The notes under the pieces were generated by a model. It worked only from the letters and a program-made list of their open reading frames with translations. It was not told the DNA's origin and did not search any database. A stretch of 32,000 nt of DNA from Candidatus Brocadia sp. (lineage in GTDB: Bacteria; Planctomycetota; Brocadiia; Brocadiales; Brocadiaceae), in the NCBI GenBank assembly GCA_021650915.1, contig CP091279.1, positions 3,840,001 through 3,872,000 on the forward strand, in the 5' to 3' direction. A program made the position numbers and the translations under genes. This document shows positions 15,168-26,195 of this stretch, in pieces. The stretch's first letter is position 1; every line of letters begins with the position of its first letter.

Positions 15168-15313
15168 TTGTATAGGAATTTTCATTTTATTTAAGCGAGT
15201 TTTGGGGATGTAGTAGCGGTAGGGTGGATTAAGCGAGAGCGAATCCACCTTTCCTGGAAGTAGTATTGGTGGATTCGGCGTAAAAACCAACGCCTTAATC
15301 CACCCTACTCATA
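15168..15313. mobile_element. MITE-like structured repeat, copy 1 (146 bp), flanked by a perfect 10-bp direct duplication, AGTAATTCAA
   Basis: Near-identical to 19180-19312, differing by one 13-bp indel and a few substitutions. AGTAATTCAA occurs at 15158-15167 and again at 15314-15323. Inside, nested inverted repeats are present: GTAGGGTGGATTAAG (15219-15233) pairs with CTTAATCCACCCTAC (15294-15308), and CGAATCCACC pairs with GGTGGATTCG. Confidence 0.65.
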
Positions 15314-18784: not shown

Positions 18785-19706
18785 TCAGAAATCGAGCGAA
18801 CTTTTTACCTCTTTGACGGTCTGGCTTTTGATCGTATGGGTGTATATCATGGTAGTCCTTACATCGCTGTGTTCCAGCATCTCCTGGATAGTGCGGATGT
18901 CGTAGTTGGCCTGCAAGAGGTGGGTGGCGAAACTGTGGCATAAGGTATGGGAAGATACCCTCTTCTCCTCATAATTTCAGCCTTTCTCACCGCATTCTTA
19001 ATTGCCTGCTGTACATGGGTTTCATAAAGATGATATCACAGTAAAAGGCAGAGTCCGGCACCTGTCCTTCTTCCCCTTTCCTTCATGCACGGTCAACACA
19101 CCTGCATAGAAATTGAAATTGTGCACCCTGAGTTTCAGGCATTCTGACAAACGCAGACCGCAACCGTACAGTAGCTTGATTGTATAGGAATTTTCATTTT
19201 ATTTAAGCTGGTTTGCGGTAGGGTGGATTAAACGAGAGCGAATCCACCTTTCCAGGAAATAGTTGTGGTGGATTCGGCGTAAAAACCAACGCCTTAATCC
19301 ACCCTACTCATAACTTGACAATAAGGTTATACGGACTACTGAGATTTTTCAGGACAACATCAATTTGCGCAACAGGTATATGGCACCTTCTCTTCGCCCG
19401 AACATTGTCCCTCTGATCTCCGAAATCTCTCTTGATCGCATAACGATAAAAAAACAAGAGGGCATTAAACGCCTGATTTTGGGAAGACGCAGAGACATTC
19501 TCCCTGATTGCCAGGAATCGTAAAAACTCCTTCGCATCGGCTGAAGACAAATCCCCGGGAGGCTTGTTTTTCAAAAAAAGCTGGAACTTTCTGACCCATA
19601 ATGAATAGAACCTTAATGTTTTTGGCGAATAGTGTCTTGTCTTTATCTCGGCAAACAACTTAGTGTGAGCCTTTTTCCATTCAGCAATTGGGTCATGGGA
19701 TTTCAT
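18785..19706 (-). pseudogene. intI: Integron-integrase-like tyrosine recombinase, inactivated by MITE insertion, internal deletion and frameshift
   Basis: N-terminal fragment (19706 down to 19313): TRHYSPKTLRFYSLWVRKFQLFL...VSASSQNQAFNALLFFYRY...RAKRRCHIPV...YNLIVKL. The stop codon is supplied by the inserted element. Middle fragment (19179 down to about 19025): KLLYGCGLRLSECLKLRVHNFNFYAGVLTVHEGKGKKDRCRTLP. Then [21 protein letters not shown] follows in another frame, and [42 protein letters not shown]...* in a third frame, with the stop at 18785-18787. The roughly 70 aa normally found between KDR..LP and HH.Y, including the IntI-specific insertion, is missing. Confidence 0.8.
19180..19312. 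mobile_element. MITE-like structured repeat, copy 2 (133 bp), inserted inside the integrase gene
   Basis: Same ends as copy 1 (TTGTATAGGAATTTTCATTTTATTTAAGC ... CTTAATCCACCCTACTCATA). The flanks are TAGCTTGA (19172-19179) and TAACTTGA (19311-19318). Removing the element plus one flank copy restores an in-frame ...NLIVKLLYGCGLRLSE..., a conserved recombinase motif. Confidence 0.7.
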
Positions 19707-20068
19707 CTCTGATGCCGGATTTACCTTACGTGACGGTAACGCGTTGGGTTTTCCGTAGGGTTGATTATATTTATGACAGTAATCAAGATAGTATTGCAGT
19801 CATTTCTTATAATGATTATGGTATGAAACAGGAATCATCTTTTTTGTCAAAACCATCCTGTATTTTAACCACAATTCATTTGGGATATTGATCATTGAAT
19901 AAATATCCTCTTTTCTGTTTATCACACAAAAAGTGATGTTAGTCGGAAATAATATACGTATTTTTATATTTTTTGTCAATAATCTATTGTTTTATATTGA
20001 CTTTCAATTTTTGTTTTGATAAAAGACAGAAACTGTATAATAATTTGTCAGACATCAGGAGATATTGC

Positions 20069-20335
20069 ATGTCGTTTGCGTTTGTGTGTGCTGGATGGTT
20101 TGTAGGCTACTTTCTTCTGCGGTTTGGAATGGTTAGCAGGGGTAACATGTGCCAAGTTATCCAGTTTATTGGAGGCTTGCTTTGCACAGCAGTTTTGATT
20201 TCTTCGTTTTTCTTTGTGGGTTGGCTAAAAGCACTGCTGGGTTTGGCCGTTTTTTCGTTTGTCATTACTCCAATTGTTGAAATCATCATTGGCCGTATTG
20301 GAGCAGCAATTAATATCCCGTATCAAAAGGTCTAA
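20069..20335 (+). CDS. Small hydrophobic membrane protein (88 aa); first integron cassette ORF
   Basis: ATG at 20069 with an AGGAG RBS at 20057-20061. Three predicted hydrophobic helices. The TAA stop lies inside the attC R'' box GTCTAAC. I recognised no family. Confidence 0.5.
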   Translation: MSFAFVCAGWFVGYFLLRFGMVSRGNMCQVIQFIGGLLCTAVLISSFFFVGWLKALLGLAVFSFVITPIVEIIIGRIGAAINIPYQKV

Positions 20336-20394
20336 CAAATCGTTCAAGCGGACGCGGCACACGCCGCCGCGCCGCTTAACTCTAAAGGTTGTGC
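20330..20394 (+). other. attC recombination site 1 (65 bp)
   Basis: GTCTAAC-AAATC-GTT(C)AAGC-GG(A)CGCGGC-ACACGCC-GCCGCGCC-GCTTAAC-TCTAAAG-GTTGTGC. The R'' box fits RYYYAAC. L''/L' and the central stem pair, with two unpaired top-strand bases (C 20345, A 20352). The R' box begins with GTT. Confidence 0.72.
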
Positions 20395-20429
20395 GTCATG
20401 TAAGACATAAAGCAGGAGGTCTATTCAAG

Positions 20430-21302
20430 ATGAAGATTCTGGTAACGGGCAGCACCGGCACAGTTGGCTCTGAAGTGGTCAAGGAGCTTCATAAGCGCAA
20501 CGCTGCGGTTCGCGCTCTTGTCCACAGCGGGGGCAAGGGTGGCGACTTGCCGACGGATGTTGAAGTTGTCGTCGGCGACCTACTGGACCCGGTAGCGGTC
20601 CAAAAAGCGCTTGACGGTGTAGACAAACTTTACCTATTGAACGCTGTCGTTCCCGATGAGCTTACACAGGGACTCATAGCCTACGATCTAGCGAAGAGTC
20701 TCAAACTACAACAGGTCGTTTATCACTCGGTCTTCGAAGTAGACCGATTTAAGGACGTTCCACACTTTGCTTCTAAACTTGCTATCGAGAACGCACTAAA
20801 AGAGTTTGACGTTCCTTTTACCATTCTCCGCCCGAGCTACTTCTTCCAGAACGACAAGGCGTTAAAGGAGCCGCTGGTGGAGGCCGGCGTCTATCCGGTG
20901 CCCCTGGGAACGCGCGGCATTTCGGCGGTGGACGTGCGTGACATCGCGGAGGCCGCTGCCATTGCGCTAACGACCAATGGTCACCAGAGAAAAACATACA
21001 ATCTCGTCGGCCCGAAAGTCTTGAGCGGCCCGGACGCTGCTTCGATATGGAGCGGACTGCTTCACAGAGAGATTCGCTACGCAGGGGAAGCTCTCGACTC
21101 GTGGGAAGAGCAAATGCGGCATAGTGTCCCGCCGTGGATGGCTTTTGACTTGCGTATGATGTTCCAGGGGTATTTGGAGCGCGGCTTTGTTGCGGGCGAT
21201 GGAGATATCAAGGCATTAACGGAATTGTTGGGGCACCCACCTCGCAGTTACGAAGACTTCGCTCGGGAGACGGCGCTTGCTTGGCAGAACAAAGACGGCT
21301 GA
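20430..21302 (+). CDS. NmrA-family NAD(P)-binding protein (atypical SDR)
   Basis: MKILVTGSTGTVGSEVVKEL is a Rossmann motif, and the overall layout is NmrA-like. An AGGAGG RBS lies at 14-19 of 204xx. Visibly GC-richer than the surrounding sequence. The ORF-track start at 20259 reads through attC1 and I rejected it. Confidence 0.85.
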   Translation: MKILVTGSTGTVGSEVVKELHKRNAAVRALVHSGGKGGDLPTDVEVVVGDLLDPVAVQKALDGVDKLYLLNAVVPDELTQGLIAYDLAKSLKLQQVVYHSVFEVDRFKDVPHFASKLAIENALKEFDVPFTILRPSYFFQNDKALKEPLVEAGVYPVPLGTRGISAVDVRDIAEAAAIALTTNGHQRKTYNLVGPKVLSGPDAASIWSGLLHREIRYAGEALDSWEEQMRHSVPPWMAFDLRMMFQGYLERGFVAGDGDIKALTELLGHPPRSYEDFARETALAWQNKDG

Positions 21303-21334
21303 TCGGTATCCGATACGGTTTCAGCACTCATGCC

Positions 21335-21422
21335 GCCCAACAAGAGTGTGCAGCCGACCGCTTACAGCGTCCGCTCATCCGTCGCTTCCGCTTCCAGCGG
21401 CGGATGACACCAGCCGTTAGTT
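21335..21422 (+). other. attC recombination site 2 (88 bp, long branched type)
   Basis: GCCCAAC (RYYYAAC) is followed by AAGA, GTGT(G)CA and a long imperfect palindrome containing CATCCGTCGCT-tccgcttcc-AGCGGCGGATG. Then come TGACAC, CAGCC and GTTAGTT. It lies between the NmrA stop and the next ORF. Confidence 0.55.
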
Positions 21423-21454
21423 GCTAATATTGGCACATGAAAGATGGATAATTA

Positions 21455-21787
21455 ATGAAACTGCCTAATAATACCCTGATTGCGTATGAGAAACTGATAC
21501 AATATCTATTAGTTCCAAGAAAGCGAAACGATAAATCACAATGGTTAGCAAAGGCAGGCTACACTATCGAAAACTGGCTGTTATTGGAAAATGATTTACG
21601 CAACCAGATTTTATCACTCGATGTCGCGCTAATTGAAAATACCCAATATGGTCAAATGTATGAAATCAGAGGGAAATTAACCGGACCGAATGGAAAAAGT
21701 TTGAAAGTATGCACAATTTGGATGACTGAAAATGAAACAGGAGACACAAAGTTCATTACTATGTATCCAAACAAAGGGAGGATATAG
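21455..21787 (+). CDS. DUF6883-like protein (upstream partner of a two-gene TA-like pair)
   Basis: 110 aa. The pattern ...KL.QYLL.......KS.WLAKAGYT..NW..LE.DLR.Q......I....YGQMYEI.G.L.GPNGK...V.TIW......... matches what I recall of the DUF6883 family. It ends 2 nt before the next ORF. Confidence 0.65.
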   Translation: MKLPNNTLIAYEKLIQYLLVPRKRNDKSQWLAKAGYTIENWLLLENDLRNQILSLDVALIENTQYGQMYEIRGKLTGPNGKSLKVCTIWMTENETGDTKFITMYPNKGRI

Positions 21788-21789
21788 AA

Positions 21790-22041
21790 ATGGCATATAA
21801 ATTGTTTGAAGAAGTCGTTTTATTAAAAGATATTCCTGAAAAAAGATTAAAAAGAGGGGACGTTGCCACTATTGTTGAGCATCACCCTGTTTCTAAGGGT
21901 GAAGACGGATATTCATTAGAAGTATTTAATGCGCTTGGAGACACAATAGCAGTGATAATTGTACCTGAATCAGCAATTGAGCCTTTAACAGAAAATGAGA
22001 TTTTTAGTATTCGTTCGTTAACGGCAGGGGGAAAAGAGTAG
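21790..22041 (+). CDS. DUF4926-like protein (downstream partner of the pair)
   Basis: 83 aa. LFEEVVLLKDIPEKRLKRGDVATIVEHH....GYSLEVFNALGDTIAVIIVPESAIEPL is the SH3-like DUF4926 pattern. Confidence 0.65.
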   Translation: MAYKLFEEVVLLKDIPEKRLKRGDVATIVEHHPVSKGEDGYSLEVFNALGDTIAVIIVPESAIEPLTENEIFSIRSLTAGGKE

Positions 22042-22130
22042 AAGTAGCCGGGTACACCTCAGTTAAAAAAATGAACGAATTTTTCACCTGAATATCGTTG
22101 CAGCAAAATTAAGATTTAAGGAAAAAGAAA

Positions 22131-22190
22131 GCCTAATAATGCAATCCAGCGGACGGCAAAAAACGCCGCCGCTGATTTTTAGCGTTCGCG
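22131..22190 (+). other. attC recombination site 3 (60 bp)
   Basis: GCCTAAT-AATGC-AATC(C)AGC-GG(A)CGGC-AAAAAAC-GCCGCC-GCTGATT-TTTAGC-GTTCGCG. It has the same architecture and the same unpaired C and A as attC1. The R'' box has T in place of the final C. The next ORF starts 4 nt after it. Confidence 0.65.
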
Positions 22191-22193
22191 TGT

Positions 22194-22631
22194 ATGGAAC
22201 ACATTGAGTGGTGGCACATACTTGTCGTTGCAGCAATTGTCTGCCTCATCCTTGAAACGCTTTCGCACGGCTTGACCGGTTTCGCGTTTGCGATTGCGTT
22301 CGCGTCAGCGGCTGCCGCCGCATATTTCGGAGCACAAGCCAAAGGCCAATTGCTCGCTGCAATAATCAGTTTGGCGGTTTCCTTTTTTGGCCTTCGACCG
22401 TTGTTTCTGTGTCTCTTGATCAAGCAGACACCAGCAACCAGAACAAACCTGGAGGCGTTGATCGGACGACGAGCAAGAGTAATCGAAGCGATTGACACCG
22501 TCACAGGCGGCGGCAGGGTTCAGCTTGACGGCGATACTTGGAGAGCCTCATCGCTCCAAAAGCACGAAGTCGGAGATTGGGTCGTAATTACAGATTTAGA
22601 CGGTGTGACCGTCAACGTCAGAAAGGAATAA
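22194..22631 (+). CDS. NfeD-family membrane protein (short YbbJ/YuaF type)
   Basis: An N-terminal hydrophobic region is followed by a C-terminal OB-fold-like motif, GRRARVIEAID..TGGGRVQLDGDTWRASS...EVGDWVVITDLDGVTVNV. It lies directly upstream of an SPFH gene, the canonical pairing. Confidence 0.8.
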   Translation: MEHIEWWHILVVAAIVCLILETLSHGLTGFAFAIAFASAAAAAYFGAQAKGQLLAAIISLAVSFFGLRPLFLCLLIKQTPATRTNLEALIGRRARVIEAIDTVTGGGRVQLDGDTWRASSLQKHEVGDWVVITDLDGVTVNVRKE

Positions 22632-22637
22632 ACCACT

Positions 22638-23633
22638 ATGCCGCCTATCATCATCCTGAGTGCAGTCGTCTTATTGTTCATCATTTTCGTTGCCTTCGGC
22701 TTTCGCCTCATCAGCCAGTCGGAGACAATGGTTATAGAGCGTCTCGGACGCTACCACCGGACGCTGGATTCCGGCATCAATTTCATTTTCCCCATAACCG
22801 ACCGCACCAGGACCATTGAATGGAAGTACATCAAGGCAGATGTTGACGGAAAAACAATCGTGAGAAAGGGCACTATCAAACGCATCGATTTGCGAGAGAC
22901 CGTCTATGATTTTCCGAGGCAGACTGTCATCACGAAGGACAATGTCACTATCGAACTGAATGCGTTGCTTTATTTCCAGATTACCGACGCCAAACGGGCT
23001 GTTTACGAGATAAACAACTTGCCGGATGCGATTGAGAAGTTGACCCAGACGACTCTGCGAAACGTCATTGGAGAGCTTGAGCTTGACCAGACGCTTGCAT
23101 CGCGTGACACGATAAACACGAAACTTCGCGCGATTCTTGACGACGCCACCGGAAAGTGGGGCGTGAAGATCAACCGTGTCGAGTTGCAGGATATTGTCCC
23201 ACCCGATCAGATTCGCGACGCGATGGAGAAGCAGATGCGTGCCGAGCGAGACCGACGCGCCGCGATTCTTGAAGCCGAAGGTAAGAAGCAAGCCAGCATT
23301 CTACAAGCTGAGGGATTGCGGAACGCGGAAGTTGAAAAGGCACAGGGCGAGAAGCAGGCTGCCATTTTGATAGCTGACGGGCAGGCGGAAGCCAGAATCA
23401 GAACTGCCAAAGCAGAAGCGGAAGCAATTCGCCTCGTTACCGAATCGCTCGCACGCACCAAGACCGACCCCGCTCATTATCTGCTCGGCGTCAAATACGT
23501 TGAAACTCTGAGAGAGATGGTTTCAGGAAAGAACAACAAGGTTGTCTATCTGCCGTTCGAGGCCACGGCTCTCTTTGGCTCGCTCGGTGGCGTCAGAGAA
23601 CTTTTCCAGAAGACAGATGAAAAACGGGTCTAA
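22638..23633 (+). CDS. SPFH/band-7 (stomatin/QmcA-like) membrane protein
   Basis: An N-terminal TM anchor is followed by the SPFH core (VIERLGRYHRTL.SGINFIFP..D........DLRE...D.PRQ.VITKDNV.I..NALLYFQITD...AVYEI.N....IE.L.QTTLRNVIGELELDQTLASRD.IN). An Ala/Glu-rich coiled coil follows. The TAA stop lies inside GTCTAAC. Confidence 0.9.
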   Translation: MPPIIILSAVVLLFIIFVAFGFRLISQSETMVIERLGRYHRTLDSGINFIFPITDRTRTIEWKYIKADVDGKTIVRKGTIKRIDLRETVYDFPRQTVITKDNVTIELNALLYFQITDAKRAVYEINNLPDAIEKLTQTTLRNVIGELELDQTLASRDTINTKLRAILDDATGKWGVKINRVELQDIVPPDQIRDAMEKQMRAERDRRAAILEAEGKKQASILQAEGLRNAEVEKAQGEKQAAILIADGQAEARIRTAKAEAEAIRLVTESLARTKTDPAHYLLGVKYVETLREMVSGKNNKVVYLPFEATALFGSLGGVRELFQKTDEKRV

Positions 23634-23683
23634 CAATGCATTGCAGCGAACCTGACGGGAGGGTCGCTGTTGCAACGTTGCCT
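23628..23683 (+). other. attC recombination site 4 (56 bp, degenerate)
   Basis: GTCTAAC-AATGC-ATTGCAGC-GA(A)CC-TGACGGGAG-GGTCGCT(GTT)GCAA-C-GTTGCCT. Its left arm is near-identical to that of attC3 (TAAyAATGCAwTsCAGCG). The stem has an unpaired A on the left and a 3-nt bulge on the right arm. Confidence 0.5.
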
Positions 23684-23856
23684 CCCTGTGCTGGGGTTGC
23701 TGAGCTTGGGTCGTTGGGCGGCATGGTGGATATCAATGACCTCGCTCAGCGGATCTCATCTGTGTTAAATGACGCGGTGGTTTAGCGCCTATCGAAGCTT
23801 CTCCTTGACTGGACCAAGGACAGCAGGGTCGTTCTCTATACCTCGTTGCACTCGCC

Positions 23857-24028
23857 GTGGGCTTCACCATTGGCCGCTACCGTGCCTCCTCGTACCAGAA
23901 TCGTGGCGAGGCGCTGCTCTCCCGCGTTGTGCAGACGAACTTCGGTCCTCCTGACTATCACCTGATGAATCATGTCACCCTTCGGCTGAAGGATGGCACA
24001 ACCCAGGTTGATCACATTCTCGTCTCTA
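23857..24028 (+). pseudogene. NERD-domain-like protein, 5' part only; interrupted by IS630-family insertion
   Basis: The frame is open from 23809. It reads ...LYLVALAVGFTIGRY (a TM-like stretch), then NRGEALLSRVVQTNFGPPDYHLMNHVTLRLKDGTTQVDHILVS, which resembles the NERD N-terminal half (GE..v...L......y.v..dv.l.....tQIDHivvs). The reading frame runs into the IS at 24029, and no recognisable continuation follows the IS. The start codon is uncertain. Confidence 0.45.
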
Positions 24029-24045
24029 GTATTACAACAAATTAA

Positions 24046-24738
24046 TTACGAAACATAGTGCCTTGACAGCTTTTGATCAGCATCTTGCCGTGTAAACTTC
24101 CAATCTATTGTTGATTTGGCCTGATTGCGTCGGTCAGTCCACGCAGCGACTTCCGACCGAAGGGTTTGTTCGTTTGGTATTCGGCACCCAGTACACTGCC
24201 GATCCATGATGCCGATTTCAATTTCAGCCATATTAAGCCAACTGGCATGCTTGGGAGTATAATGAAATTCTACTCGTTCCAACATCTGGGTTGCTTCTTC
24301 AACACCCAATATTTCTTCAAAACTACTGCGAAAATGAGTATTAAGATTGTCCAACACCAGATGAATCTTGAGCGCCCTTACATAGACTTTTTTTACCAAA
24401 TGGCCGATGAACTGGACAAAATCTCTCTTGGTACGACGGGTTGTCACTTCAACCTGTCTACAACCACCCTTAGGTTCAACTGCCATGAAAATATTACGGG
24501 TGCCGGCACGTTTATACTCGCAGTCCTCTTTGACAGGATTGCCCGGACTGGCAGGAATTGGAAGGCGCGGTTGTTCCAAAAGCTGCTTACTCTTCTCGTC
24601 TACGCAAATCACTGGCTCGTCCTCACAATAAGACCTCGTGTAGAGTTCCAGCAAATCATACATCCTTTGGCGGTATTCCTCAGTCAATTTACCAATACAC
24701 CACATCAATTTCCGCCACGGCTTACAGTCGTTTTTTTT
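24046..24738 (-). CDS. IS630 transposase, DDE catalytic part (orfB), reached by a -1 frameshift on the A8 run
   Basis: The -1 frame across the A8 run (T8 on the plus strand, 24731-24738) reads KKNDCKPWRKLMWCI, a conserved IS630 junction motif. Downstream candidate acidic triad residues lie in VICVDEKS, HLVLDNLNTH and SWLNMAEIEI. Confidence 0.8.
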   Translation of the reverse strand, partial: KKNDCKPWRKLMWCIGKLTEEYRQRMYDLLELYTRSYCEDEPVICVDEKSKQLLEQPRLPIPASPGNPVKEDCEYKRAGTRNIFMAVEPKGGCRQVEVTTRRTKRDFVQFIGHLVKKVYVRALKIHLVLDNLNTHFRSSFEEILGVEEATQMLERVEFHYTPKHASWLNMAEIEIGIMDRQCTGCRIPNEQTLRSEVAAWTDRRNQAKSTIDWKFTRQDADQKLSRHYVS

Positions 24739-25148
24739 AGAAAGAGACGGATACTTTCACGACTAATCTTTCTAAGTTTTAGCTGTTGCCTTATTGCTTC
24801 AGTCAACAAGGCGATTGTCCAGCGCCTGGCACCCTTCGGTGGTGCACTACATGCCAAAGCTACGACTTCGGCTTGTTGGTTGGTTCCGTATTTTACCGGC
24901 TGACCGGGTCTGACAACATCGTGAAGTGCATAATCCAAGCCCTTCTCAAGATATGCAGAGCGTGTCCGCCAAATGGCAGTGCGGCCAACACCCAGAACAG
25001 ACAGAATATGTTTTTCAGGCACATTTTGGTCTAAAGCCGATAATATATGCGCACGATTGACTTCTCTTGTCATGTGCTGCCCCTTGGAGCGAAATGACTT
25101 CAAGGTTGCTCGTTCTTCCTCGGTAAGTTGAATTTTTGCTTGTCTCAT
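24705..25148 (-). CDS. IS630 transposase, N-terminal HTH part (orfA)
   Basis: MRQAKIQLTEEERATLKSF...GVGRTAIWRTRSAYLEKGL...RWTIALLTEAI. This is a helix-turn-helix / winged-helix region typical of IS630/Tc1 transposases. An upstream ATG at 25160 is an alternative start. Confidence 0.8.
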   Translation of the reverse strand: MRQAKIQLTEEERATLKSFRSKGQHMTREVNRAHILSALDQNVPEKHILSVLGVGRTAIWRTRSAYLEKGLDYALHDVVRPGQPVKYGTNQQAEVVALACSAPPKGARRWTIALLTEAIRQQLKLRKISRESIRLFLKKTTVSRGGN

Positions 25149-25411
25149 GAAGCACAGCATAATGTATTGTAATTAATTTGTCAACACACTAGGTATTTTA
25201 ATTTACGTGGGACAATTCGTGTGGATGTGGAAGGGATGAAAAAGGGGTCAGGGTGTAGTTATTATGGTACTGGGGTGGCAGAGTGAGAGCTGATACCTGA
25301 AAACTGAAGTCAGAATTCGAGCCTTTTGTGGGCTGGACTTGGATAGAGAATATGCAAGCAAGACTTGAGATGGTTGCAAGGATATATAAAATTCAGAAAC
25401 AGATTTTTCGC

Positions 25412-25816
25412 TCAAATCCTGAGCCGGGATATCACCGGGGCATGCTGGAAAAAATAGAGATGTGAATAACAGGAGCAATCCGATGAACCAAAGCCTTTCA
25501 CCGGCGCCGAAGCATCTTTCATCTTTCCGATTTTACGACTCAGAACGCACTCCTTCTTTTTTTCGCCGGCATAGGTATGGACAGAGACGACTCGTCCATA
25601 TGGCAGGAGATAGTCGATGTGCCAGCGAACTTTCTTTTCCCGCTGTAAATGCCTTTTTATCCGGTGCTCCAGGTTGTTTTGTGCACTTCCGACATAGACA
25701 TAAAAACCCGCCGGAAAATCGAAGGTGCCCAGGCGTCCGATCTCCAGAGAAGACCTTTGCAGGACTCGAACAACAAGGCCATATATTCCTTTCTTTAAAA
25801 CGAGAGTTTCTGACAT
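25412..25816 (-). CDS. GIY-YIG superfamily protein, DUF123/Uri-like
   Basis: FYVYVGSAQNNLEHRIKRHLQREKKVRWHIDYLL...ECVLSRKI......VKGFGSSDCSCYSHLYFF matches the DUF123 pattern (YvGSA...l..Ri.RH.....k.WHIDYL...EC......gFGsSDC.C.sHL). I chose the start at MSETLVL (25816); the longer ORF-track N-terminus looks non-coding. Confidence 0.7.
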   Translation of the reverse strand: MSETLVLKKGIYGLVVRVLQRSSLEIGRLGTFDFPAGFYVYVGSAQNNLEHRIKRHLQREKKVRWHIDYLLPYGRVVSVHTYAGEKKKECVLSRKIGKMKDASAPVKGFGSSDCSCYSHLYFFQHAPVISRLRI

Positions 25817-26003
25817 GGAACGTGCCCGGCGTGTAATATTTCGATATTTCCCAACTCGTGCGGGAGATGAGGAATTTGAATCCATGATCAGCACCTGACG
25901 GATGCTGAGTGCATCACATGCTTCGATCTTCCTATAAACTTCAGAGAGACAGTATAAAAAGTTTTCCTCCAAATGAAAAGCAGATATTTTTATGCCCGTT
26001 TTT

Positions 26004-26195
26004 TCAGGTTGTCTTTCGCAGATTCTCGTGCTTCTTTCGCACCTTCTCCTGAAGCACATTCCCCGGCTTGTATAAATTTGCTGCTACTATTCCCAGTGCA
26101 CAATACCTTTTAAATGTATGCAACCCTTTGTTCAGACACCTTCCAAACCGTGATGTTTTAAGCGATTGATGTCCAATTCCACTGCGGAGTGCCAA
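26004..26195 (-). pseudogene. C-terminal remnant of a DDE transposase (IS5/IS1182-like)
   Basis: LRSGIGHQSLKTSRFGRCLNKGLHTFKRYCALGIVAANLYK resembles the conserved C-terminal tail of IS5-group transposases (..IGH.K.....R...KG..........a.NL.k). Nothing upstream of it is recognisable as a transposase. Confidence 0.4.

Follow-up and report, generated by a model that had tools for sequence, protein, structure and literature searches.

Does a run of short, tightly packed plus-strand ORFs next to a recombinase-like gene in an anammox planctomycete represent an integron, and if so, is that integron still at work? Inspection of the letters alone had suggested a decayed sedentary chromosomal integron with a dead integrase gene (intI), at least five cassettes and four attC-like sites, in what might be an anammox host. 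The guess as to the host was correct, since the window (the whole 32-kb stretch of DNA analyzed) matches Candidatus Brocadia (GCA_000987375.1). The reading as an integron array was also supported, with minor corrections concerning the end of the fourth attC site, the extent of intI, the attI position, the GC content of cassette 1 and the NERD and toxin-antitoxin labels of the cargo. The locus is very probably a fossil chromosomal integron of Candidatus Brocadia, composed of an inactivated intI and a cassette array.

Identification of the integrase pseudogene

The intI pseudogene is located at 18788..19895 on the minus strand, as delimited by tblastn with IntI1, P0002 and the IntI proteins of Brocadia sp. 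WS118 and B. sapporoensis, with TIGR02249 as best match. A minus-strand intI-like gene had been seen in this place, but its proposed end at 19706 was wrong, as the tblastn homology extends to 19895. This homology is distributed over segments in differing reading frames, namely, 19895 to 19302, 19180 to 19025, 19023 to 18964, and 18964 to 18788. The gene had rightly been called dead, and the damage is wider than was first noticed. It comprises frameshifts and stop codons, a 130-nt MITE-like insertion, a deletion of about 65 codons between patch III and box II that takes out the IntI-specific domain (residues 318-382 of the WS118 protein are absent), and the replacement of the catalytic Arg by Cys, by which the motif HTFRHS has become HTLCHS. 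The MITE-like repeat, of approximately 130 nt, is found at 19181..19307 and contains a perfect 14-nt inverted repeat (GTAGGGTGGATTAA / TTAATCCACCCTAC); the intI frame resumes on its far side, and a second copy is present at 15175-15312.

NCBIfam TIGR02249 was the top profile for all three intI fragments (81.2, 29.7 and 45.7 bits; E = 8e-23, 4e-7 and 5e-12), its cut-off of 265 bits being defined for the whole protein and out of reach for truncated fragments. The N-terminal fragment scored 22.9 bits with XerC and 19.7 bits with XerD versus 81.2 bits with TIGR02249, and the C-terminal fragment 31.6 and 30.6 bits, respectively, versus 45.7 bits, so that for the first and third fragments TIGR02249 was superior by several orders of magnitude. 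Given that the IntI-specific domain has been deleted, the gene is a pseudogene and not a functional IntI, and its assignment to IntI is based on what is left of the gene and on its intact relatives. A homologue search with the N-terminal fragment returned only short or truncated proteins, and the intact relatives were recovered by scanning genome contigs. B. sapporoensis was found to possess an intact IntI gene at the same locus (TIGR02249 345.8 bits), and another is encoded by Brocadia sp. WS118 (364 bits), both above the cut-off of 265 bits. The IntI-specific domain is present in both (LEKKYKNIGKDLIWQWFFP...RRYHLHE), and the intact sister-species IntI carries an extra, weakly SAM-like N-terminal domain. 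A closer relationship of the recombinase to XerC/D, which would have spoken against an integron, is thus contradicted by the better fit of the fragments to TIGR02249 and by the intact relatives that pass its cut-off. The integrase is not of class 1, as scores with the class 1 equivalog NF011946 were well below its cut-off of 435 bits, the intact relatives reaching 245.7-256.9 bits.

The attC sites

Two covariance models built from sequences outside the window were used for the attC sites. Model R1 was derived from six class 1 plasmid attC sites only; a ten-sequence alignment with long sites misplaced the 3' stem arms, and the six short sites were kept. Model R2 was derived from 22 chromosomal attC sites that adjoin related intI genes in other genomes. 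The four palindromes noted from the sequence were found by these models where they had been placed, all on the plus strand, and they were the only strong matches in the window; a failure of all four to score, named beforehand as a refutation, was therefore not observed. S1 (20330..20394) obtained 53.7 bits with R1 (E = 2e-14) and 52.7 bits with R2 (E = 1e-10), and S3 (22131..22190, or 22189) 28.5 bits (E = 2e-6) and 48.3 bits (E = 1e-9). S2 (21335..21422), which is long and partly decayed, scored 25.7 bits with R2 (E = 4.5e-4) and only 9.9 bits with R1, and S4 (23628..23719) 27.6 bits with R2 (E = 1.5e-4) and 14.8 bits with R1. For S4, the site itself was confirmed but the short end at 23683 was not: the alternative ending at 23682/3 reached 18.1 bits with R2 versus 27.6 bits for the long form, so that 23719 is the more likely end. 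When R2 was run over both strands of the 32 kb, S1, S3, S4 and S2 were the top four matches, the next best scored 13.5 bits, and no other had an E value below 0.4. All 22 matches of R1 over 973 kb of related-IntI loci were on the strand opposite to intI, and 69 of the 70 matches of R2 over 81 loci were on the expected strand. No Rfam family was matched at gathering thresholds anywhere in the window.

The best plasmid blastn matches of S1 were the attC sites of the aadA1 and blaOXA-198 cassettes. S1 shares with the aadA1 attC (59-base element) the R'' box GTCTAAC, the L'' box GTTCAAGC, the L' box GCTTAAC, the spacing and both extrahelical bases, whereas its R' box GTTGTGC is hybrid. Folding of the bottom strands, as proposed in the sequence-only reading, gave canonical structures for S1, with both single-base bulges of the aadA1 attC, and for S3, the stem of which contains a bulged T in the one-bulge pattern of that site, but the folds predicted for S2 and S4 did not surpass those of shuffled sequence (z = -1.0 and z = -0.6 to -1.4, respectively). 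The minimum-energy fold of S2 differs from the canonical hairpin, and its R2 alignment shows an A bulge on the top strand; S4 is without the canonical bulges and has an ambiguous 3' boundary. As folding offers no distinction between shuffled sequence and S2 or S4, the status of these two as attC sites rests on the covariance models. The four sites lie within 3.4 kb, measure 60-92 nt and show limited mutual similarity.

The attI region and candidate promoters

All ORFs of the array and all four attC sites are on the plus strand and intI is on the minus strand, and the array, in a canonically divergent arrangement, begins at a distance of about 150 nt from the start codon of intI. A candidate intI promoter, TTGACA-17-TATATT (19951..19979, minus strand), agrees with the consensus at 11 of 12 positions and is conserved in Brocadia WS118, where it precedes the intact intI at an equivalent position. 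We know of no attI model for this integrase clade. Alignment with WS118 points to a candidate attI region at 19980..20053 (plus strand) that would end in the R'-like box GTCAGAC (20047-20053). This box aligns with GTTAGGC (cassette strand) in WS118 and matches the reverse complement of the S1 R'' box (GTTAGAC) at six of seven positions; it has GTC instead of GTT. A second candidate crossover, GTTAGTC at 19937-19943, falls in the interval that separates the start codon of intI from its conserved candidate promoter and was rejected, the WS118 alignment making 20047-20053 the more likely point. A promoter scan suggested a putative cassette promoter (Pc), TTGATA-17-AATAAT, at 20016-20044 on the plus strand. 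Promoter-like sites in the region numbered 6 as compared to 5.2 in shuffled sequence, which is not above chance.

The cassettes, their cargo and the distal end

Four complete cassettes and one fragment follow on the plus strand, so that four of the at least five cassettes proposed earlier are complete, but the fifth is a fragment only. Cassette 1 (20048..20388) encodes a small hydrophobic protein of 88 amino acids (20069-20335) with no family match in Pfam/NCBIfam scans. Cassette 2 (20389..21416) encodes an NmrA-family NAD(P)-binding protein (20430-21302; Pfam NmrA E = 5e-24). Cassette 3 (21417..22184) contains two adjacent small ORFs, assigned by Pfam to DUF6883 (21455-21787) and DUF4926 (21790-22041), and cassette 4 (22185..23713) those for NfeD (22194-22631) and an SPFH/Band-7 protein (22638-23633), likewise by Pfam. 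The fragment of cassette 5 (23714..24028) retains a truncated, weakly NERD-like ORF from 23857. As first pointed out from the sequence, two stop codons fall inside an R'' box GTCTAAC (TAA at 20333-20335 and at 23631-23633), the former being that of the cassette 1 ORF in the S1 R'' box. The starting hexamers of cassettes 1 and 2 match the R'' box of their own attC at five of six positions, and are closer to it than R' is to R'' within one site; no such match is seen between the start of cassette 4 (TTCGCG) and the S4 R'' box (reverse complement TTAGAC).

Further array signatures were borne out, with corrections. The distance from an R' box to the next ORF, put at 4-40 nt from the sequence alone, was measured from the attC end to the next start codon as 35, 32 and 3 nt, and as 137-173 nt after S4. 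Jumps in GC content between units are real, with values of 0.454, 0.554, 0.365 and 0.525 for cassettes 1 to 4, 0.557 for the fragment of cassette 5 and 0.44-0.46 for the flanks, but cassette 1, described as AT-rich, is host-like when the better attI candidate is taken as its boundary (0.454). Several cargo labels were not confirmed. The "TA-like pair" consists of DUF6883 and DUF4926, and no toxin-antitoxin family was matched. The NERD assignment of cassette 5 remained below threshold (17.6-20.5 bits versus a Pfam cut-off of 22.1), the match spanning only positions 3-50 of the 111 of the profile. The idea of a phage-defence cargo found no support, as PADLOC detected nothing for any cassette protein.

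The array is truncated at its distal end by an IS630-family insertion sequence (24029..25189, minus strand) that was recognized by its DDE_3 and HTH_32/HTH_23 domains, its terminal inverted repeats and its junctions, and that has TA on both flanks. A continuation of the NERD ORF past this element was considered and rejected, since, whichever way the two flanks are joined, the Pfam match stays below cut-off and does not reach beyond position 50 of 111.

Related integrons and exchange of cassettes

The intI gene of B. sapporoensis adjoins the same MBL-fold, polyprenyl-synthetase and glycosyltransferase genes as that of the window (78-93% protein identity), and this synteny backs the term "sedentary" given to the locus at first sight. 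The flanking genes of the WS118 intI differ; the stretch between intI and the array, in which the candidate promoter and the R'-like box lie, is conserved in this intact integron. Related integrases with attC arrays are also present in Scalindua genomes.

Cassette 2 shares 81-84% nucleotide identity with loci in Nitrospira and in another Brocadia. This homology begins at most 4 nt from the GTT of the S1 R' box and stops directly before the S2 R'' box. The sequence-only reading would have been undermined by the same genes in non-cassette contexts; what was found is a homology whose break points coincide with the attC boundaries to within a few bases. Directly after the Nitrospira copies of cassette 2 no attC was detectable, and none was detected directly upstream of the Nitrospira NmrA homologue. 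The short contigs of this species, which all have the identical order, gave no sign of presence/absence polymorphism of cassettes, for which a comparison had been proposed; these contigs end at either the MITE-like repeat or the IS.

Comparison with known integron types

Clusters of attC sites lacking an integron integrase have been termed CALIN (IntegronFinder; Cury et al. 2016, PMC4889954), the criterion being at least two attC sites within 4 kb and no functional intI nearby. The locus is a CALIN by this definition, with an adjacent intI pseudogene. It resembles the reported elements (PMC4889954) in having at least two same-strand attC sites within 4 kb and fewer than six in total, a recognizable intI pseudogene within 10 kb in place of a functional gene, an IS at the edge of the array, and a cargo other than antibiotic resistance; it differs from those of that report in that its host is an anammox planctomycete. 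In the same study, intI pseudogenes were detected via the IntI_Cterm-specific region (PMC4889954), and since the pseudogene described here has lost this region, such a screen might miss it.

There are also similarities with the sedentary chromosomal integrons of Vibrio and Xanthomonas, namely, a chromosomal position that is syntenic in a sister species, an intI divergent from the cassettes, and an uncharacterized cargo that includes a small two-gene module. The decay of intI is reminiscent of the Xanthomonas type (Nemergut et al. 2008, PMC2426708), and pseudogenization is common, affecting about one-third of the intI genes surveyed in that study. Unlike the long homogeneous arrays of Vibrio, the locus is very short (four attC sites), and its attC sites are heterogeneous (60-92 nt). 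It is also unlike class 1 integrons, given its different integrase, its chromosomal flanks and the absence of a Tn402 or 3'-conserved-segment context.

Functional state and history of the locus

To go by how integrons are known to work, promoterless circular cassettes would formerly have been inserted into attI by an IntI tyrosine recombinase, each capture being a recombination of attI with the folded bottom strand of the attC of the cassette. The outcome would have been a co-oriented plus-strand array read from a promoter proximal to attI. The later damage is recorded in the sequence, in that intI has been destroyed by several lesions and the distal array end has been cut by the IS630-family element. 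On this reading, the present array of four complete cassettes and one fragment is frozen in cis, with expression possible only from the proximal promoter or from promoters within cassettes, and rearrangement possible only with another IntI in trans.

Such an IntI, encoded elsewhere in this genome or brought in by an incoming element, might still excise and reshuffle the cassettes, in which case the array would be a working reservoir and not a fossil. The high-scoring, structurally canonical S1 and S3, the intact IntI genes of the same clade in sister Brocadia genomes, and the observation that half of the CALIN elements occur in IntI-encoding genomes (Cury et al. 2016, PMC4889954) are compatible with this scenario. 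It appears unlikely, given the same cassette order in every contig recovered for this species, the degraded state of S2 and S4, and the GTC in place of GTT in the R'-like box of attI.

Very little speaks for the view that an XerC/D-like or phage-type integrase pseudogene lies by chance beside an island with palindromic terminators or REP-like repeats. The poor folding of S2 and S4, the lack of an Rfam match and the other mobile DNA in the region (the MITE-like repeat and the IS630 element) would fit this view, but it is already contradicted by independent attC models that select exactly these four sites, each intergenic as expected and on the correct strand, and that match the expected strand beside intI in 80 other genomes (69 of 70 matches for R2 over 81 loci), as well as by the base-for-base resemblance of S1 to the aadA1 attC, both bulges included, and by the best match of the integrase segments to TIGR02249, the cut-off of which is passed by related intact genes. 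Least probable of all is an independent CALIN that arose by secondary-site insertion beside an unrelated intI pseudogene, an origin that is possible for CALIN elements (PMC4889954) but at odds with a spacing of about 150 nt between array and intI start, with the canonical divergent layout of the two, and with an intervening region, including promoter and R'-like box, that is conserved with the intact WS118 integron. The fossil integron, with intI and cassettes as parts of one element, is therefore the reading we retain.

Biological significance

Integrons are usually discussed in the context of antibiotic resistance in Proteobacteria. The locus is evidence of a chromosomal integron platform in anammox Planctomycetota, at syntenic positions in two Brocadia species. 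It is an ordinary kind of element in a host in which an integron had not been described: the literature searched contained no article describing an integron in Brocadia. For Planctomycetes, intI genes have been on record since 2007-2008 (PMC2426708). It also illustrates routes by which integrons decay, namely, insertion of a MITE-like repeat, an IS element and loss of the diagnostic IntI domain, and annotation pipelines that seek intI pseudogenes by the IntI-specific C-terminal profile could call it a bare CALIN.

The NmrA-family cassette, which has a nucleotide identity of about 84% to its Nitrospira counterpart, is a concrete example of gene flow across phyla. A tentative extension is that the Brocadia platform is a sedentary integron at the genus level, active in sister species and swapping cassettes across phylum borders, with Nitrospira as well as with further members of nitrogen-removal communities, the copy in the window being a decayed endpoint. 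If this were the case, the live system would feed accessory genes to slow-growing bacteria that are hard to culture.

attC Sites

The search of the window with Rfam returned no match, and we therefore built our own covariance models. When plasmids were searched by blastn with site S1, the best matches fell on the attC sites of two class 1 integron cassettes, aadA1 and blaOXA-198. From the two plasmids concerned, we took six short attC sites of class 1 integrons as the basis of the first model, R1, whose structure follows the textbook order R''/L''/L'/R' and includes two bulges. With filters off and both strands of the whole window searched, R1 gave hits to S1 (20330-20394; 53.7 bits, E = 2e-14), S3 (22131-22189; 28.5 bits, E = 2e-6), and S4 (23628-23719; 14.8 bits, E = 0.05), whereas the score of S2 (21335-21422; 9.9 bits) was not significant. 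Relatives had been sought with an alignment of the N-terminal integrase domain, and the scan, which covered species-representative genomes, yielded 80 IntI-related loci. The 973 kb of these loci contain 22 R1 hits with E <= 0.05, and every one is on the strand opposite intI; this is the expected integron arrangement and an internal check on specificity.

These 22 chromosomal sites, none of which comes from the window, formed the training set of the second model, R2. Its four best matches in the window were S1 (52.7 bits), S3 (48.3 bits), S4 (27.6 bits), and S2 (25.7 bits), all on the plus strand, and the next-best matches reached only 13.5 and 11.7 bits (E > 0.4). Across 81 loci, 69 of the 70 R2 hits were on the expected strand, and the positive loci include Brocadia sp. 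WS118, another anammox-like MAG, and three Scalindua-type genomes. All four attC-like sites named in a sequence-only reading of this region were thus matched by the model; what changes is the end of S4, which that reading had placed at 23683 (18.1 bits with R2, compared to 27.6 bits for an end at 23719, with the R' box GTTGGGC). The longer version of S4 appears to be the more likely one. In single-stranded DNA folding, the bottom strands of both S1 and S3 formed the central stem, and their single-base bulges were those of the aadA1 attC control. For S2 and S4, the predicted fold was not significantly better than that of shuffled sequence.

Integrase Pseudogene

The integron integrase profile TIGR02249 of NCBIfam was the top profile for all three minus-strand ORF fragments that had been ascribed to an integrase, and these fragments cover positions 6-124, 132-172, and 274-313 of its 315 positions. 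XerC and XerD scored far below TIGR02249 in the profile search. The tblastn queries used to map the gene were the plasmid IntI1, P0002 (a relative with 72% identity), and two intact integrases, from Brocadia sp. WS118 and from B. sapporoensis. The pseudogene extends from 18788 to 19895 on the minus strand; its proposed location (18785-19706) was correct, but the gene runs about 190 nt further.

The designation of this intI as dead is borne out by numerous lesions: in-frame stop codons and deletions in the N-terminal extension (19895-19707), a deletion of four codons, an insertion of about 130 nt (19181-19307), at least two frameshifts, the absence of WS118 residues 318-382, which correspond exactly to the IntI-specific additional domain, and the loss of the catalytic arginine from the HxxR motif, where HTFRHS has become HTLCHS. 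The insertion is a copy of a MITE-like repeat, about 130 nt long, that contains a perfect inverted repeat of 14 nt (GTAGGGTGGATTAA ... TTAATCCACCCTAC) and has no match in Rfam. The window contains two copies, an intergenic one at 15175-15312 and that at 19181-19307 disrupting intI. Short-read contigs of the same Brocadia species break at this repeat. The C-terminal remnant of the integrase (18788-18964) shares 93% protein identity with WS118 IntI, whereas the N-terminal domain (19302-19682) shares only about 60%, which suggests a mosaic or recombinant history of the gene.

The integrase of B. sapporoensis has the neighbours found in the window, namely the MBL-fold, polyprenyl-synthetase, and glycosyltransferase genes (78-93% protein identity), and is intact, scoring 345.8 bits with TIGR02249 (cut-off of 265 bits). 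The WS118 integrase, whose flanking genes differ from those of the window, is also intact (364 bits). Taken together, these comparisons support the view that the integron is sedentary and indicate that a true IntI was the ancestor of the remnant in the window. The B. sapporoensis contig stops just upstream of the integrase and does not cover the array. The SPFH protein of the window and the integrase fragment, with the same neighbours, also occur on LAQJ01000042.1 of GCA_000987375.1 as well as on numerous short contigs from metagenomes, and their database clusters bear the name "Candidatus Brocadia sp." The host is therefore an anammox planctomycete, as had been supposed in the sequence-only reading.

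An N-terminal extension of some 100-140 amino acids (MxNIPxxL..KKWLRYYLDFCH) is shared by the integron integrases of this clade, as seen in the window (19707-19895, minus strand), at locus L016 (9581-10030), and in the proteins P0004 and P0093. The extension has a weak second match to the SAM-like domain (E = 3.7e-4), and its possible counterpart is the longer IntI clade ("clade 15," with about 120 additional amino acids) described by Nemergut et al. 2008 (PMC2426708).

Cassettes and Their Cargo

Several signatures of cassette organisation that had been read from the sequence were confirmed. Two stop codons are located within GTCTAAC R'' boxes, the next ORFs start only 35, 32, and 3 nt past S1, S2, and S3, respectively, and the GC content jumps between cassettes 2 to 5 (0.554, 0.365, 0.525, and 0.557), compared to 0.44-0.46 in the flanking chromosome. 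Because recombination cuts between the G and TT of R', a cassette is expected to open with six bases complementary to the R'' box of its own attC site, not to that of the preceding one. Five of six bases agree with this in cassettes 1 and 2 and four of six in cassette 3, but the rule fails for cassette 4.

The cargo consists of an 88-amino-acid hydrophobic protein without family (cassette 1), an NmrA-family NAD(P)-binding protein (cassette 2), a DUF6883/DUF4926 pair (cassette 3), an NfeD/SPFH pair (cassette 4), and a NERD-like fragment (cassette 5). None of the cassette proteins matched a PADLOC defence model, and the suggestion of phage-defence type cargo was not upheld; this label, like that of toxin-antitoxin, is speculative.

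Proteins 83-86% identical to that of cassette 2 are encoded in Nitrospira MAGs, which belong to another phylum and inhabit the same kind of reactors, and, similarly close, in another Brocadia genome. At the DNA level, the cassette (20389-21334) is 81-84% identical to these loci (L104, 7972-8905; L109, 7954-8873; L106, 100-1044). Homology to one Nitrospira locus starts no more than 4 nt from the GTT of the S1 R' box, homology to a second stops directly before the S2 R'' box, and the other Brocadia copy is followed by an attC-like half-site. In the Nitrospira loci no attC was found directly adjacent to the NmrA gene; attC matches lie 0.5-2.4 kb downstream on the same strand. The case that the NmrA unit moved between phyla as a cassette is good, though not decisive, and an identity of 81-84% across phyla points to a horizontal and fairly recent transfer.

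Candidate attI Region and Distal End of the Array

The stretch from the intI start codon to the first cassette, which includes the proposed attI region (19980-20053), is conserved with that of the WS118 integron. It contains a candidate intI promoter, the minus-strand TTGACA-17-TATATT (19979-19951), that is kept in WS118. An R'-like box lies on the cassette strand; it reads GTTAGGC in WS118 and GTCAGAC (20047-20053) in the window, and the latter agrees in 6 of 7 positions with the reverse complement of the S1 R'' box. On the plus strand, TTGATA-17-AATAAT (20016-20044) would be well placed for a candidate cassette promoter. The attI and promoter assignments are putative, and the number of promoter-like sites in this stretch is not above that expected from shuffled sequence.

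A short ORF at the distal end is split by an IS630-family element (24029-25189), which has DDE_3 and HTH domains, terminal inverted repeats, and TA at both flanks. The NERD cargo proposed for this ORF stands as a weak likeness only; whichever way the flanks are joined, the Pfam match stays under the cut-off and spans under half the domain. R2 found no attC beyond the element within the window, where a minus-strand DUF123 gene and then an ABC transporter follow, and the array is therefore truncated at the IS630 element. The DUF123/GIY-YIG-like gene is located at 25412-26059 (minus strand), immediately after this element.

Relation to Known Integrons

Overall, the observation is confirmed, and the reading as a decayed chromosomal integron is supported apart from small corrections. 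The mechanism is that of standard integrons, no longer active in cis. In IntegronFinder terms, the locus fits a CALIN that has an intI pseudogene beside it. In the survey of Cury et al., 15 of 279 CALIN elements had such a pseudogene nearby, and an IS was present inside or beside many arrays (PMC4889954); Nemergut et al. detected intI in Planctomycetes and found about one third of intI genes to be pseudogenes (PMC2426708). A full-text literature search revealed no published integron in Brocadia or anammox genomes. Brocadia, Scalindua, and Anammoxibacter are the anammox genomes among the 80 IntI-related loci. An IntI gene with attC hits on the divergent strand is present at five loci (L012, L016, L023, L029, and L043), from Brocadia sp. 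WS118, Scalindua rubra, Scalindua sp., a Scalinduaceae MAG, and the MAG encoding P0002, itself a truncated IntI. Integrons thus appear to be common among anammox-type genomes.
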